A stretch of 64,000 nucleotides of DNA from Escherichia phage JLBYU24, in sequence record OK272476.1; one strand, 5' to 3'. The first letter of the stretch is position 1; every line of letters begins with the position of its first letter. Shown here piece by piece: positions 4,318-64,000 of this stretch. The position numbers were made by a program, and so were the translations under genes. The notes beneath the pieces are model-generated. The model was not told the origin of the DNA and ran no database searches. It saw only the letters and a list, made by a program, of their open reading frames with translations.

Positions 4318-4336
4318 AAAGGCCCGAAGGCCTTTT
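4318..4336 (-). terminator. stable hairpin, C(UUCG)G tetraloop on minus-strand RNA
   Basis: aaaggcc-cgaa-ggccttt inverted repeat immediately 3' of ORF 4335-4607. Confidence 0.55.
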
Positions 4337-4607
4337 ATTTAAAACGGATAGTCGAATCCTTGAAGAATAGACCAGAACATACTGTTCCTTCTACTTTCTG
4401 CCCGGTAGGTCCAATAGCACGAAATCCAGTATGTTGGAAATCATTTTCAGAGCAACCGAACCAATTATATCCAGTGATTTCAATATTAGTAAAACCGCTT
4501 GAAGACAAAATTTTGGTTGCATTATCAGCATCAGTACATCCTACTAAAGATACTGCTAATACTAATGCTGCGATAGAACGATTAACATATTTCATAATTT
4601 CACTCAA
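4335..4607 (-). CDS. putative lipoprotein
   Basis: 90 aa; N-terminal signal peptide with LVGC lipobox-like motif. Confidence 0.5.
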   Translation of the reverse strand: MSEIMKYVNRSIAALVLAVSLVGCTDADNATKILSSSGFTNIEITGYNWFGCSENDFQHTGFRAIGPTGQKVEGTVCSGLFFKDSTIRFK

Positions 4608-19177: not shown

Positions 19178-19471
19178 TTATTCGCCTGTGATTTCGGTTA
19201 CGATATTTTTGTTATTAAAGTTTTTATCGCAATACAGAACATAATTATACTGCATTACACCACCAGACTTAAGCTGTTTTTGTACTTCAGCTTTCATTTC
19301 AGGACGATCGCGCTCAACGATATTCATAATATCCGCTTCAATTTGAGTTTCAACTTCAGTCTGATCTGCAGTCATAGACCATTCACACAAATCTTTATCA
19401 TATCCTGCCATAGCAGGCTGAGCAGCACAAGAAGCCAAAGTAAAAATTGTAGCAAAAATAAATTTTTTCAT
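19178..19471 (-). CDS. sp: Spackle-like periplasmic protein
   Basis: 97 aa with N-terminal signal peptide; position between 61.x ORFs and dmd. Confidence 0.7.
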   Translation of the reverse strand: MKKFIFATIFTLASCAAQPAMAGYDKDLCEWSMTADQTEVETQIEADIMNIVERDRPEMKAEVQKQLKSGGVMQYNYVLYCDKNFNNKNIVTEITGE

Positions 19472-25055: not shown

Positions 25056-25436
25056 TCACTTAGTCAAATTTTTTACACATGAATTATAAGAATTCACTAC
25101 ATACTCCATCGGAGCATTTTTACCTGTACGCCATTGGTAATTATTAGCCCAATTTGCCCAAAGTTCTGCGCAGTAGTTTTCAATTTTTTCTTCGCGTGTA
25201 ATTACATCCGAATTACGATATGCTTGGGCAGATTCATCTGGACGAATAGCCTCGTCAAAATTCGCCTGCATTTGTTCTACTGTCTGTTTTGGAGCTTCTT
25301 TATAACACTTGACATTAGGATTATAAAATTTGCTTGAACAGTTTACAATTTTTCCTACATCAGACTGATTTACTACCGGTCCTTGAGCTACACAACCAGT
25401 AAGACCTAATGCAATAACCAAAATAGCGATTTTCAT
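25056..25436 (-). CDS. putative lipoprotein
   Basis: 126 aa; signal peptide with LTGC lipobox. Confidence 0.5.
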   Translation of the reverse strand: MKIAILVIALGLTGCVAQGPVVNQSDVGKIVNCSSKFYNPNVKCYKEAPKQTVEQMQANFDEAIRPDESAQAYRNSDVITREEKIENYCAELWANWANNYQWRTGKNAPMEYVVNSYNSCVKNLTK

Positions 25437-25446
25437 AATAATTTCC

Positions 25447-25695
25447 TCAAATGCAAGTAGTAATTACTCCAGTAGTGCTTATGCAGGTATTACCCATTTG
25501 CACACCTAAAGATCCATTTGTATTCACATGAAGATTATCATCAATTTTAACTGATATTTTACCATTAGTGTGAATAACGGTGCTAGATTCAATCACAGGT
25601 TGAGTATCATTTTCAACACTAACAAATGGAACTGCTGCTAATGCAACTAAACAAACTGCTAAGCATCCCATAACAATTTTCATTTTATTCTCCAA
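25447..25695 (-). CDS. putative secreted protein
   Basis: 82 aa with N-terminal signal peptide. Confidence 0.45.
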   Translation of the reverse strand: MENKMKIVMGCLAVCLVALAAVPFVSVENDTQPVIESSTVIHTNGKISVKIDDNLHVNTNGSLGVQMGNTCISTTGVITTCI

Positions 25696-56010: not shown

Positions 56011-56397
56011 TTATTCGAGGGAAAGAAGATATTTACTCTGGTAAAACATTCCAGTAATATCATCTATCGTGCTTTGAATGGCTGGAGGCATTTCTTTATA
56101 AATGCTGTTAGATTGGTCTAGTATGCGATCAATCATTTTAATTGTGTCGGTAGGAAGTTTACTGGCATCTGGAATTGAAGGCGTGTATTTTCTACCAGAA
56201 TACCCCAAATATTGCTCACCAAATTTATCAATCAAATCTGGCAACTCGGAGAAAATAAAATCGTATGCTTTGTGTCTAGCATAACTTTTAGTTTCAAAAT
56301 GTGCAGAATGAAAATAAGCTTGTGCAGCCATTAATAAACCTAAGTATTCATCTGCCTTTGAAGGTTTTCCACTTTGTGAAAAGTCGCTGAATTTCAT
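56011..56397 (-). CDS. hypothetical protein (rI.-1 position)
   Basis: 128-aa ORF overlapping rI stop. Confidence 0.45.
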
Positions 56398-56687
56398 TCA
56401 GTCTCCAATTTAATGTTCATAATTCTAGCGTATGATTGTGCCATCTCCGCGCCTCGCTCTATACATTCAAAATCAGAAGAGCACGGGTCATTTTTATAGG
56501 TCGTTCTCATAAAACTATAGAATTGTTCAGACGATTCTACGCTTTTATTTTCAAAAAGCATATAAACGTGCCTAATACCAGATTCCATAAATTTATCAAA
56601 ATGAGGATCGACATTCGCTTCAATCGATGGAGATAAAACAAATGACAATCCTAGCATGGCAAAAAGTGCCGTTGCTTTTAAGGCCAT
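56394..56687 (-). CDS. rI: lysis inhibition regulator rI
   Basis: 97 aa; N-terminal signal-anchor; size and position next to tk. Confidence 0.75.
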   Translation of the reverse strand: MALKATALFAMLGLSFVLSPSIEANVDPHFDKFMESGIRHVYMLFENKSVESSEQFYSFMRTTYKNDPCSSDFECIERGAEMAQSYARIMNIKLETE

Positions 56688-56955: not shown

Positions 56956-57537
56956 CTAACCGAGCTTTTTAGTTAATTCATTCCAATGTTTTCTGCACAA
57001 AGAAACATAAATTTCATCACCAATACAGATTTGATTACCTTCTTTAACTGGTGTTCCATCTTCCATTAATCGAGCTGTCATAATCGCTTTTTTGCCGCAA
57101 TGACAAACTGCCTTTAGTTCAATAAGTTTATCTGCAATCGCTAAAAGTTCTTTAGAACCTTCAAACAATTTTCCAGCGAAATCAGTCCTTAATCCATAAG
57201 CCATAACAGGAACATTATATGTATCAACAATTCGGCTTAATTGGTGCACCTGTTCAGTTTTTAAAAACTGAGCTTCATCTACAAATACGCAATGAATATC
57301 TTTTTGTGCTTCAGCCCATTTATAGAACTCGAAAATATCCATATCATCTGTAATAATATTCGCTTCCTGTTTAATTCCAATGCGAGAAACAACTTCACAG
57401 ACAGAATCGCGAGTATCAATAGCAGGCTTAAGAACTAATACACTCATTCCACGTTCTTTATAATTATGTGCAGCAGTCAAAAGAGAAGCAGATTTTCCAG
57501 CATTCATTGCTGCATAAGTAAAAATTAAACTCGCCAT
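56956..57537 (-). CDS. tk: thymidine kinase
   Basis: 193 aa; P-loop AAMNAGKS; C-terminal Cys pairs; size match. Confidence 0.92.
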   Translation of the reverse strand: MASLIFTYAAMNAGKSASLLTAAHNYKERGMSVLVLKPAIDTRDSVCEVVSRIGIKQEANIITDDMDIFEFYKWAEAQKDIHCVFVDEAQFLKTEQVHQLSRIVDTYNVPVMAYGLRTDFAGKLFEGSKELLAIADKLIELKAVCHCGKKAIMTARLMEDGTPVKEGNQICIGDEIYVSLCRKHWNELTKKLG

Positions 57538-58126: not shown

Positions 58127-58314
58127 TATTCTTCTACATGTTGTTTACGACCTTTCTTATCAATAAAGGTATATTCAACGAATGTTCCAATGTAGTCTTT
58201 ATCTACATCATGTGGACTATTAATTGGACATTTAGTACGGCAAATGCGTTCCCATTGACGAATAATTACTGCTTTGTTTTTAGGATCAAACGGATGCGGG
58301 TAATGTACTTTCAT
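58102..58314 (-). CDS. hypothetical protein
   Basis: 70-aa ORF. Confidence 0.4.
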   Translation of the reverse strand: MKVHYPHPFDPKNKAVIIRQWERICRTKCPINSPHDVDKDYIGTFVEYTFIDKKGRKQHVEEYCLKVTWL

Positions 58315-58765
58315 AATCCACCACTATTAAATCAATATCAGGAGTAAACATGTCGATTAATTTAGAAACCTTATCCCAATCGCCGCCAGCAATACCACAA
58401 CCTATGCGTGGAATGTAAATTACCGGTTTAAACAAAAGGGTTTCTGCCTGTAGATTTAATTCTATCATGCAGTTTACTAAAGCACCATAATCAAGATTAG
58501 GACCTGGTTCGTATTGCGTATACAAGTTATAACATATGCCAAAACCATTAGGTTTATGTTTAAAAACAATAGACATATCGCCTAATTTATCACGAGAACC
58601 GTACTCAGTAGTGGTTTTATCTATTTCTAAAATTTTGGGATAGGCTCTTGCTAATTGACCAGCTACACCACTGCCCATTGTATGAAAACAGTTACACCCA
58701 TGCGCAATAATATTACCTTCAAGAAAGAGGGCGACAATATCGCCCTTGATATATTTTACAATCAT
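58286..58765 (-). CDS. macro-domain protein (ADP-ribose binding/processing fold)
   Basis: 159 aa; KGDIV...HGCNCFHTMGSGVAGQLA and IPRIGCGIAGGDW macro motifs. Confidence 0.6.
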   Translation of the reverse strand: MIVKYIKGDIVALFLEGNIIAHGCNCFHTMGSGVAGQLARAYPKILEIDKTTTEYGSRDKLGDMSIVFKHKPNGFGICYNLYTQYEPGPNLDYGALVNCMIELNLQAETLLFKPVIYIPRIGCGIAGGDWDKVSKLIDMFTPDIDLIVVDYESTLPASV

Positions 58766-59103
58766 CTAGTACTCAATCCTCGATTATAAGAATCTACCAA
58801 ACGGTCAACCATTGAATGACAAGCGGCTTTATCTTTTTCCTCCGCAACTGAACATTCTAAGGTATTCCACTTTTTAGCATATCGTTTTAACAATGTATCG
58901 TTTTTGTATCTGCTTGATTTATCTCTTTCTCCGTCTTTATATGCATATATTAATTTCTGCGCAAATTCAGCTTGGCATGCTTTATTTTTCCCGCAATAAT
59001 CCGCTGCAGTACGGTTTACATACTCTCTAATTTCAGTATATGATGTATCTGCTAACGCAGAAAATGAAATTAATCCTATACATAAAACCAAAATTTTAGT
59101 CAT
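58762..59103 (-). CDS. secreted protein
   Basis: 113 aa; N-terminal signal peptide; 4 Cys in mature part. Confidence 0.45.
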   Translation of the reverse strand: MTKILVLCIGLISFSALADTSYTEIREYVNRTAADYCGKNKACQAEFAQKLIYAYKDGERDKSSRYKNDTLLKRYAKKWNTLECSVAEEKDKAACHSMVDRLVDSYNRGLSTR

Positions 59104-59641
59104 TTACTATTTCCAAAAGTTTATTATTTTTAAGGTAATTAGCCTTTTCTAGGACTTCAGAAGCATATTTAGAACCTGCTTTAACATTCCATCCCGAATT
59201 ATAAGAGGATATTGCTTTTCTTATATCGCCCTTATGTATATTTAACCAATAAGAAAGTTCAATGTACGCCCAGGAAGCTGAATTGGACCGTTTATTCAAC
59301 ATTCTTTTTATTTCAGCATCGGTCATATTATAACCAAGTTCCTTAACTCTTGCTCGCATAGTAGGCAAATAATTTTGGAACATTCCATAAGCGTGATGCT
59401 TTGGTTTAGATTTTAAATTAACTCCGCCAGAGCTTTCTTGCCATAAAATAGCAGCCATTATATGACCTAATCCGCTCTTGTGGATATTTTTGTGTGTTTT
59501 ATATTTTCCATCCTTAGAAAACTGTTCCCCGAATTGATACGCGTAACGCATGTTATCGAGTTGGACATTACTGAAAGTATGCTCGGAGCTATGTGCCATC
59601 ATTGAAATGGCCAATAGACCAGCGAGTAGTGCTTTTCTCAT
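59096..59641 (-). CDS. periplasmic lytic transglycosylase-like protein
   Basis: 181 aa; signal peptide; SLT-like motifs LWQESSGG, AYGMFQ, SSYNSG. Confidence 0.55.
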   Translation of the reverse strand: MRKALLAGLLAISMMAHSSEHTFSNVQLDNMRYAYQFGEQFSKDGKYKTHKNIHKSGLGHIMAAILWQESSGGVNLKSKPKHHAYGMFQNYLPTMRARVKELGYNMTDAEIKRMLNKRSNSASWAYIELSYWLNIHKGDIRKAISSYNSGWNVKAGSKYASEVLEKANYLKNNKLLEIVND

Positions 59642-59648
59642 GCTTACC

Positions 59649-60110
59649 TCATTGAGTTTTAATTACTGCTTTAGAAGCCTTTCCTGGTAAACGACGACTG
59701 TTAATAATTGCCATCCTGCATTGAAGCGACGGGTCTTTGAACTTCGCATTAGGTTTACAAACTGTAAACCCAAGCCAAAGATTTCCATCTGTGATTTCTA
59801 AACGTCCAGGACGATATTCAACCCCATCAATAAAATCCTCGTCAATGTCAGGACGCGGAGGCATACTCAGGAATTCATTAACTTCTAAAACATGGTCTTT
59901 TATTTTGTGGAATAATTCAAAAACATATGTCTCATCAATCTCCCGTTGAATTGCACGATCAAGAAGATGCTGAGAATATTTTAGATGAAACGATGAGACC
60001 CCTGCTGCTTTTGATGCCTCACGAATCTCATTGTTAATTTGACGAAACTCCGACTCAAAATGACGACGAAGCTTATTTCGACGGATAAAAACTTCTGTAT
60101 TGATAGTCAT
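59649..60110 (-). CDS. regB: RegB endoribonuclease
   Basis: 153 aa; size and sequence match remembered T4 RegB. Confidence 0.8.
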   Translation of the reverse strand: MTINTEVFIRRNKLRRHFESEFRQINNEIREASKAAGVSSFHLKYSQHLLDRAIQREIDETYVFELFHKIKDHVLEVNEFLSMPPRPDIDEDFIDGVEYRPGRLEITDGNLWLGFTVCKPNAKFKDPSLQCRMAIINSRRLPGKASKAVIKTQ

Positions 60111-60137: not shown

Positions 60138-60167
60138 ATTATACCACAGTCAAGAGGAAAAGTAAAC
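60138..60167 (-). promoter_or_regulatory. T4-type early promoter
   Basis: minus strand GTTTAC-N18-TATAAT with tgtgg extension. Confidence 0.6.
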
Positions 60168-62307: not shown

Positions 62308-62781
62308 TTATTTGAACGATTTAACGTACTGAATAGAACCTTTACTATTCACAAAGGCAATTTTACCATTTTTATTATACATGGTAGCAGTACGTTGATA
62401 ACCATAAGTTTGTTTACCAGATTGATAACCAACTAATGCGAAATTATCTTCGCCCATTTTATTCTGTTTAGCGCGAATGCGTTCATGACCATGTGCCATA
62501 AGAACCTTAGCATCACCAGTTGCAATGGATCGACGAGTTTTTTCATCTTCAACTGTATTAACAAAGTCGTCAAATGAATCAAATTTAGCATGAGATTTAT
62601 TATACAATTTTCCATCTACTGCATAATTATATCCCTGTACATCCATCTCAACTTCTGTACCATCATCCAATACAGCAGTGATTTTTTGACCTTTTTTAAA
62701 TTTCAAAAGATCAGTAAAAGATTCAGCAATAATTTGAGAATTAATAGCTGCTTCAGTGATAAATTCTTGATATGTTTTCAT
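62308..62781 (-). CDS. capsid internal protein with capsid-targeting sequence
   Basis: 157 aa; N-terminus MKTYQEFITEA resembles T4 internal-protein CTS; basic. Confidence 0.65.
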   Translation of the reverse strand: MKTYQEFITEAAINSQIIAESFTDLLKFKKGQKITAVLDDGTEVEMDVQGYNYAVDGKLYNKSHAKFDSFDDFVNTVEDEKTRRSIATGDAKVLMAHGHERIRAKQNKMGEDNFALVGYQSGKQTYGYQRTATMYNKNGKIAFVNSKGSIQYVKSFK

Positions 62782-62790
62782 ATGTTTCCT

Positions 62791-63207
62791 TTAAATGTAA
62801 ATATTTTTACCGTAATACTTATACCAATGTGGTTTCATTAAAATTTTTTCATCAAGTCGTTGTTGACTCAATTTAATAGCTGATTTGCATGGATTATAAT
62901 CATTTTTCCATTCTACTGGAATATCGCTGATGTCAGGAACTTCAGTATCTTTTATACTGAACCCGCGTTTTAAGCATTCCGTTATAATGTCTAATTGACG
63001 CTTTCGCAAAAATTCTAACTTATCGTAAAAGAACGTAACATGACCAGAACCTAAAATAAACTCGGAAGATATTTTAAAATCTTTAACGCGCTTACCGTTT
63101 GCCACATGCTTACGAACTATACCAAAAACACGCGGCAATTCACGGTATTCTGCGATTAAATGTTGATCAGCAAGTTCAGATACTAAAGTCAAATTAATAC
63201 GAGTCAT
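62791..63207 (-). CDS. denV: endonuclease V (pyrimidine dimer DNA glycosylase)
   Basis: 138 aa; [17 protein letters not shown]...[10 protein letters not shown] matches remembered T4 DenV. Confidence 0.93.

Positions 63208-63266: not shown

Positions 63267-64000
<734 letters not shown>

Follow-up and report, generated by a model that had tools for sequence, protein, structure and literature searches.

Family-1 lytic transglycosylases (GH23, PF01464), represented by Slt70, MltD and EmtA/MltE of Escherichia coli and Pseudomonas, are periplasmic enzymes with a lysozyme-like helical fold, in which the glutamate of an E-S motif stands at the end of a helix and is accompanied by the motifs G-L/M-M/F-Q and A-Y-N-x-G. 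The element considered here is the gene pair vs.1-vs of Escherichia phage JLBYU24, located in a stretch of 64,000 nucleotides of sequence record OK272476.1 that was analysed as a whole and is called the window below. The product of the larger gene, Vs.1, appears to share the fold, the motifs and, by prediction, the periplasmic location of these enzymes, at an identity of only ~15% and a template modelling (TM) score of ~0.5. Unlike them, it has neither a lipobox nor accessory domains, is encoded by a phage and is made early. A second set of described systems comprises single-domain transglycosylases specialised for secretion or conjugation, VirB1, EtgA, IpgF and P19, which combine a signal peptide with one SLT domain in ~150-200 residues and some of which are controlled by a partner. 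Their architecture matches the one predicted for Vs.1. Unlike theirs, the gene context of vs.1 includes no secretion system, and we know of no trans-envelope structure that needs Vs.1.

Two phage proteins are also comparable. Tgl of Kayvirus is encoded by the phage apart from its endolysin, is secreted through Sec and has transglycosylase motifs (PMC7150955). Tgl resembles Vs.1 in being a second secreted muralytic enzyme besides the phage endolysin, both secretion and muralytic activity being predicted in the case of Vs.1. Tgl acts on a Gram-positive host, however, and belongs to the unrelated IsaA/SceD-like family. T4 Spackle is small and periplasmic and inhibits the gp5 lysozyme (PMC7677548). 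It is, like Vs, the product of the smaller gene of the pair, a small, early, signal-peptide-bearing T4 protein, and it offers an example of a phage protein that inhibits a muralytic enzyme. No similarity in sequence or fold was detected between Spackle and Vs, and no Spackle entry is found among the PDB matches of Vs, so that the likeness is functional only.

A preliminary description, made by a model from the sequence alone, had pointed to two adjacent open reading frames (ORFs) at 58762-59641, an observation that is confirmed here. This interval of the window contains exactly two ORFs, both on the minus strand. They correspond to vs.1 and vs of T4, two early genes to which they are orthologous. 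The window belongs to Tequatrovirus: the DNA of the region shares 99.8-100% identity with genomes of this genus, and its genes follow the T4 order, i.e. regB, vs.1, vs, tk.4, then tk. The larger ORF, vs.1 (59096..59641, minus strand, 181 residues), codes for a predicted secreted, lytic-transglycosylase-like enzyme of the GH23/SLT type. Its product is assigned to phrog_600, matches the Pfam SLT domain and is 100% identical to T4 Vs.1 (UniProt P13311, Y06E_BPT4). The smaller ORF, vs (58762..59103, minus strand, 113 residues), is annotated 'valyl-tRNA synthetase modifier' and codes for a predicted secreted four-helix protein. It is orthologous to T4 vs by the identity of the mature proteins (100% to mature T4 Vs; P13310, VS_BPT4), by membership of phrog_1256 and by map position. 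The sole difference between the Vs sequences of the window and of T4 is an indel of two residues within the c-region of the predicted signal peptide (SFSASASA|DTSY in T4, SFSALA|DTSY here), which leaves the signal peptide of the window two residues shorter and a small-x-small motif before DTSY in both. The stop of vs.1 and the start of vs overlap by 8 nt (59096..59103, minus strand, ATGACTAA), and vs overlaps tk.4 as well. The 1986 T4 record names these two genes just ORF 61.4 and ORF 60.9, ORF 60.9 being vs. Taken jointly, the gene identity, an exported GH23-type enzyme and an exported Vs form a reading that we consider probable.

The preliminary description had called the larger ORF lytic-transglycosylase-like from the motifs xES, GMFQ and YNSG, and profile and fold searches agree with that call. 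Vs.1 scores 25.1 bits against Pfam SLT (PF01464; gathering cut-off 21.3, E=1.4e-5, residues 61-154). In an alignment of 42 Vs.1 sequences (40-82% identity), E69, G86, Q89, Y147, N148 and G150 are invariant and S70 is nearly so. The predicted catalytic E-S motif, Glu69-Ser70, is encoded at 59432..59437, motif II (G-M-F-Q, codons 86-89) at 59375..59386 and motif III (Y-N-S-G, codons 147-150) at 59192..59203, all on the minus strand. The glutamate is kept in the homologues of Aeromonas and Acinetobacter phages and in those of Kuttervirus and Felixounavirus; the latter two are ~30% identical to Vs.1 and both fall in phrog_600. Of these two, the Kuttervirus protein, with 21.6 bits, exceeds the SLT threshold, which the Felixounavirus protein, with 19.2 bits, narrowly misses. 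In profile alignments, E69-S70 corresponds to the E-S of EmtA ('AIES') and Slt70 ('RQES') of E. coli, and AYGMFQ corresponds to GLMQ of both enzymes. The AlphaFold model of Vs.1 has a predicted local distance difference test score (pLDDT) of 89 and a predicted TM score of 0.83; its helix 59-70 has E69 at its end. All of the best PDB matches of this model in Foldseek (top ~20) belong to GH23 or to related lysozyme-like enzymes: MltD, a GH23 chitinase, cod g-type lysozyme, Slt and the phi6 lysin. Sequence and modelled structure together support the placement of Vs.1 as a divergent member of the known GH23/SLT family.

Several results weigh against this placement and what follows from it. The hhalign statistics are poor for Vs.1 against the single sequences of EmtA and Slt70, the Foldseek scores are weak (E 8e-3 to 0.3, TM 0.45-0.54), and PDB sequence searches with the single sequence and with a profile returned almost nothing for Vs.1. 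Literature searches, outside which much of the older T4 literature lies, yielded no experiment on export, cleavage or muralytic activity for either Vs.1 or Vs. A search of NCBIfam gave no matches. Such divergence, with weak matches and with no activity ever reported, would also suit a catalytically dead Vs.1 that binds murein or serves as a decoy. The catalytic Glu and the three motifs are nevertheless invariant in more than 40 sequences and in homologues of ~30% identity, which is not expected for a dead enzyme, and we give this explanation a slim chance, the smallest of those considered here.

Since both kinds of enzyme occur in GH23, Vs.1 might instead be a hydrolytic muramidase, akin to goose-type lysozymes or GH23 chitinases, and not a lytic transglycosylase. 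Cod g-type lysozyme and the GH23 chitinase rank level with MltD and Slt in the fold search, and the sole sequence-level match in the PDB is a g-type lysozyme, the one from cod, whose alignment covers the Y-N-S-G stretch, the only part of Vs.1 that aligns by sequence to a solved structure. The g-type lysozymes carry extra acidic residues after the catalytic Glu. In the corresponding segment of the 42-sequence alignment, however, no second acidic residue, Asp or Glu, is conserved after E69, and motifs I-III fit the SLT family-1 pattern. The missing second acid favours a lytic transglycosylase over a hydrolase, a preference to be held loosely, and a hydrolytic Vs.1 seems unlikely.

The SLT similarity of vs.1 was published in 2006 (Nolan et al., PMC1524935), and many GenBank records already name the protein 'transglycosylase SLT domain-containing protein'. 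The enzyme part of the reading is already known as a prediction, and its interpretation, a reasonable one, is largely in the literature and the databases. The preliminary description is supported on the signal peptides, the SLT likeness, the separateness from lysozyme e and the early RNA; the gene names vs.1 and vs, the earlier publication of the SLT similarity and the 'valyl-tRNA synthetase modifier' annotation had escaped it. The annotation of Vs.1 homologues has also drifted, with labels such as 'endoribonuclease', 'site-specific RNA endonuclease', 'C-type lysozyme/alpha-lactalbumin' or 'putative lysin'.

Both products have the appearance of proteins with cleavable signal peptides. The N-terminus of Vs.1 (MRK, followed by ALLAGLLAISMMA and AHS|SEHTF) and that of Vs (MTK, followed by ILVLCIGLISFS and ALA|DTSYT) show the n/h/c layout of a Sec signal peptide, with a Lys/Arg n-region, an uncharged hydrophobic core of 12-13 residues and a small-x-small site (AHS|S and ALA|D, respectively). 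The most hydrophobic stretch of 11 residues is the N-terminal segment in each of the two proteins. The predicted signal peptide of Vs.1 spans codons 1-18 (MRKALLAGLLAISMMAHS; 59588..59641, minus strand), with a cut before SEHTF, and that of Vs likewise spans codons 1-18 (MTKILVLCIGLISFSALA; 59050..59103, minus strand), with a cut before DTSYT. The mature N-terminal peptides are predicted to be SEHTFSNVQLDNMR for Vs.1 and DTSYTEIR for Vs. As a control, one explicit simple rule was applied to all 159 ATG-initiated ORFs of at least 60 residues in the window. Nine satisfied it, Vs.1 and Vs among them, along with the products of 19178..19471, which we take to be the periplasmic T4 Spackle, and of 56394..56687, presumably the periplasmic T4 RI. 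Three further ORFs that pass the rule lie at 4335-4595, 25056-25436 and 25447-25683, all on the minus strand; two of these three have lipobox-like ends (SLVGC, LTGC) and are candidate lipoproteins, possibly spanin or exclusion proteins.

The layout is retained in the 42 aligned Vs.1 and 38 aligned Vs homologues despite residue drift, and also in far more distant relatives. In the AlphaFold models of both proteins, the pLDDT is ~50 at residues 1-20 (53-54 in Vs.1) and exceeds 90 in the mature parts. In Vs the next Met comes at residue 98, so that initiation at an internal codon could not produce a version lacking the signal peptide. When His-tagged at its N-terminus, full-length Vs was insoluble (PMC8076793), as expected if the signal peptide is blocked. 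Judged by these sequence features, both ORFs carry canonical signal peptides for Sec and signal peptidase I, and both export and cleavage are predicted. No paper mentioning a signal peptide in Vs.1 or Vs was found in the literature searches, within the same limit as to older T4 work. The possibility of Vs being a lipoprotein was rejected: its Cys8, which lies in the signal peptide, has no lipobox and is not conserved.

The T4-type endolysin gene e (63267..63761, minus strand; identified from the ORF and its translation, and taken by us to be T4 lysozyme) lies ~3.6 kb from vs.1. It is a separate gene whose product has no signal peptide, which bears out the distinction drawn beforehand between the secreted enzyme and lysozyme e. 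Vs.1 might nonetheless assist e, as an auxiliary or signal-arrest-release (SAR) endolysin whose N-terminus would keep it in the membrane until its release at lysis. Its muralytic fold and its hydrophobic N-terminus, rich in Ala, Gly and Ser, would be compatible with such a role, and Felixounavirus homologues are called 'putative lysin' in some records. A SAR endolysin has an uncleaved, weakly hydrophobic N-terminal membrane span of ~18 or more residues, whereas the h-region of Vs.1, ~13 residues long, is too short to span the membrane and is followed in all homologues by the conserved small-x-small cleavage motif; a SAR-type anchor is unlikely given the shortness of the h-regions. Moreover, the RNA is early and not late, no holin or spanin gene adjoins vs.1, and the lysis genetics of T4 is accounted for by e, t and the spanins. 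A lysis role of this kind appears very improbable.

The early expression proposed in the preliminary description agrees with T4 data, in which the RNAs of vs.1 and vs are classed as early, like that of regB, and the proteins as 'middle' (PMC9697503 supplement). Both Vs.1 and Vs were detected by mass spectrometry in T4 (PMC9697503 supplement), so both are real expressed genes. No evidence was found for a role of vs.1 or vs in lysis inhibition or superinfection.

In the mechanism that we propose, an early transcript from the regB promoter would give rise to two exported proteins, Vs.1 and Vs. Vs.1 would be made as a precursor of 181 residues, which Sec would export and signal peptidase I would cleave behind Ser18, leaving a basic protein of 163 residues with a divergent GH23 fold (SLT / goose-lysozyme-like), in which Glu69 would be the single catalytic acid. 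With Glu69 as single acid and no conserved second acidic residue nearby, Vs.1 would most likely be a lytic transglycosylase acting on murein, cleaving the MurNAc-GlcNAc bond of the host wall from the periplasmic side. Its action would set in early or midway through infection and would not depend on endolysin e, which is cytoplasmic and relies on the holin. The same transcript would also yield Vs, which would be exported and cut after Ala18, and the mature four-helix protein of 95 residues would be stapled by two disulfides. It would then work in the periplasm with Vs.1, most plausibly by restraining or directing the enzyme.

Mature Vs has 95 residues, a mass of 11.0 kDa and an isoelectric point (pI) of 8.9. 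The AlphaFold model (pLDDT 86) contains helices at residues 20-37, 41-61, 68-84 and 89-110, and the mature part is confidently predicted to be a four-helix bundle. A fold search of the PDB gave no informative structural relative of Vs, and PDB sequence searches gave nothing useful. A whole-library HMMER search with Vs retrieved 7 representatives among 1.84 billion proteins, all of them phage-like, which argues that Vs has no bacterial relative and that the family is confined to T4-like phages. The codons of four Cys (C37, C43, C84 and C95) lie in the span 58819..58995 (minus strand), and none of these four Cys of the mature part varies among 38 close homologues. With the inclusion of divergent members (26-31% identity), from phages JD18 (Klebsiella), S16 (Salmonella), Phi1 and DLP3 (Acinetobacter), all in phrog_1256, the invariant residues of the broad family (26-47% identity) came down to eight, the four Cys with G58, L102, G109 and L110.

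The turns H1-H2 and H3-H4 carry the cysteines. In the second pair the spacing is variable (x10 versus x8), and Vs has no CxxC; together with the signal peptide, these traits make disulfides preferable to a zinc site, which was judged less likely. From the sequence, two periplasmic disulfides are likely, probably C37-C43 and C84-C95. Four conserved Cys are also a trait of the DUF1311/LprI family. A DUF1311/LprI-like lysozyme inhibitor was considered and rejected for Vs, since its alignment to E. coli YecT was confined to the signal peptides.

In essentially all records the small ORF bears the annotation 'valyl-tRNA synthetase modifier', and many Vs homologues are given the label 'valyl-tRNA synthetase', the name of the enzyme proper. 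Classical work reportedly ties the vs locus to a factor that binds the cytoplasmic valyl-tRNA synthetase and to valS-dependent phenotypes in vivo; Muller and Marchin reportedly described a T4 factor of ~10 kDa that binds the host synthetase. The sequence of Vs, which looks secreted, conflicts with its name of a cytoplasmic modifier. Vs may thus be what its name says, a cytoplasmic factor binding the host valyl-tRNA synthetase, whose N-terminus serves no export or only partial export and whose adjacency to vs.1 is incidental. In addition to the near-universal annotation, the classical genetics and biochemistry, with in-vivo phenotypes linked to valS, point this way, and the 11.0 kDa and pI 8.9 of mature Vs match the reported 10-kDa factor. 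A clean vs deletion also does poorly on minimal medium, a condition that makes demands on amino-acid supply (bioRxiv 10.1101/2025.11.20.689424).

Prediction does not place Vs in the cytoplasm, however: the signal-peptide layout is conserved, no alternative start exists, and the four invariant Cys make up half of the eight residues kept family-wide. The 10-kDa factor, if it is the processed form, must have crossed the membrane. The 1986 record gives only 'ORF 60.9', and evidence assigning the vs mutations to this ORF was not found in the literature searches, again with much of the older T4 literature outside them. Adjacency to the secreted-looking Vs.1 is held even in Acinetobacter phages. A cytoplasmic Vs is possible on this evidence, although we lean away from it.

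The linkage of the two genes bears on the alternative that Vs works with Vs.1. A Vs homologue is directly downstream of vs.1 in every locus inspected for the pair (T4, the window, PM2, JS10, VR7, kv_tblp8, mar005P1, JD18, S16, Phi1 and DLP3), the two genes overlapping, abutting or lying at most 8 nt apart in the inspected phages. In Acinetobacter phage DLP3, homing-endonuclease genes stand in place of regB and no tk.4 is annotated downstream; vs.1 and vs are still joined. By tblastn, vs.1 is present in ~2045 phage records, and Vs in 795 records with a T4-type query, 411 with a JD18-type query and 367 with a DLP3-type query; the last two sets appear to overlap, leaving roughly 1200 records with Vs. 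In the inspected Aeromonas T4-like phage, Kuttervirus and Felixounavirus, vs.1 has no Vs homologue downstream, and Vs was not seen without Vs.1 among the inspected loci. We regard the pair vs.1-vs as a conserved module whose products are predicted to be secreted. In JD18, S16 and DLP3, a third ORF with a signal peptide lies between vs and tk.4, respectively gp101 (768-1160), gp67.1 (765-1166) and ADLP3_141 (2321-2746) in the coordinates of the loci inspected; it has 130-141 residues, belongs to phrog_4957 and has the mature N-terminus WEKLPGYPE (WEQLTPS in DLP3). These phages would have a secreted block of three genes. A homologue of the third ORF was sought in the window and not found.

Encoded directly after vs.1 at every inspected locus, from Escherichia to Acinetobacter phages, Vs may act together with Vs.1, and we put forward a periplasmic partnership of the two proteins tentatively, as something more doubtful than their export. 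Our best guess for the role of Vs, by analogy with T4 Spackle, is that of a restrainer of Vs.1. The full proposal, which is speculative and rather unlikely as a whole, is that vs is not, or not only, directed at the valyl-tRNA synthetase; Vs would instead be a disulfide-bonded periplasmic partner of Vs.1, most likely its restrainer, and the two would form a conserved secreted two-gene module of T4-like phages. The defect on minimal medium would then come from unrestrained Vs.1, and the synthetase modification, now 60 years old, from another gene or at least partly from a mixing of periplasm and cytoplasm. In a recent preprint, no T4 gene is depleted more strongly than vs in minimal glucose medium, and a clean vs knockout plates poorly on minimal medium (bioRxiv 10.1101/2025.11.20.689424). 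This defect is compatible with an unrestrained wall-cutting enzyme and with a classical translation-related role alike.

Against the partnership, Vs.1 does not need Vs, as it occurs in more records than Vs and at loci without it, and the overlap of the two genes is no specific sign of partnership, tight gene packing being general in T4-type genomes. Vs has no similarity to the known inhibitors of lysozymes or transglycosylases that were compared (Ivy, PliC/MliC, PliG, LprI/DUF1311, Spackle), and a wholly periplasmic Vs fails to explain the classical valS-linked phenotypes. Beside the cytoplasmic factor and the partner of Vs.1, a periplasmic Vs with some other role takes up the remainder.

Around the pair, regB, coding for an endoribonuclease (59649..60110, minus strand; Pfam REGB_T4, E=1.4e-68), is the upstream neighbour, and tk.4, coding for a macro-domain protein (58286..58765, minus strand; Pfam Macro, E=6e-8), follows vs, with tk at 56956..57537. 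The best score in a consensus scan for promoters belongs to a promoter-like site just upstream of regB (TTTACT-17-TATAAT with TG; 60138..60166, minus strand), which is the likely start of a regB-vs.1-vs early transcript. An 8-bp GC-rich hairpin (58728..58746, minus strand; -14 kcal/mol, z=-2.6) lies 16 nt past the vs stop, within the first codons of tk.4, and may end or pause this transcript. In RB69 and RB49, a terminator is predicted by transterm where vs meets tk.4 (PMC1524935 supplement). Rfam contained no RNA family matching the region. The T4 counterpart of tk.4 is named adfM in a 2025 preprint and counters the DarTG2 defence system. Farther away, a single ORF of 157 residues (62308-62781, minus strand), for which the near-identical phage JLBYU31 has the annotation 'putative internal head protein', lies between denV (62791..63207) and a vs.8-like gene. 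denV adjoins e here, whereas ipII and ipIII separate them in T4, a difference in layout that marks the internal-protein locus as variable.

To the SLT prediction already available, the present analysis adds the identification of the genes, evidence for a conserved secreted module and the topological conflict with the name of vs. That name, 'valyl-tRNA synthetase modifier', from which the last word is sometimes dropped, has been copied onto roughly 1200 phage genes with secreted-looking products, and it stands either for a topological puzzle or for a long-standing mis-assignment. The phenotype of the knockout on minimal medium makes the question of vs directly testable. Proteins of the Vs.1 type occur in ~2000 sequenced virulent myoviruses, many of them proposed for therapy. 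If the reading given here is true, T4-like phages would have a third murein-cleaving enzyme besides gp5 and e, one that would act in the periplasm during infection and not at its end.

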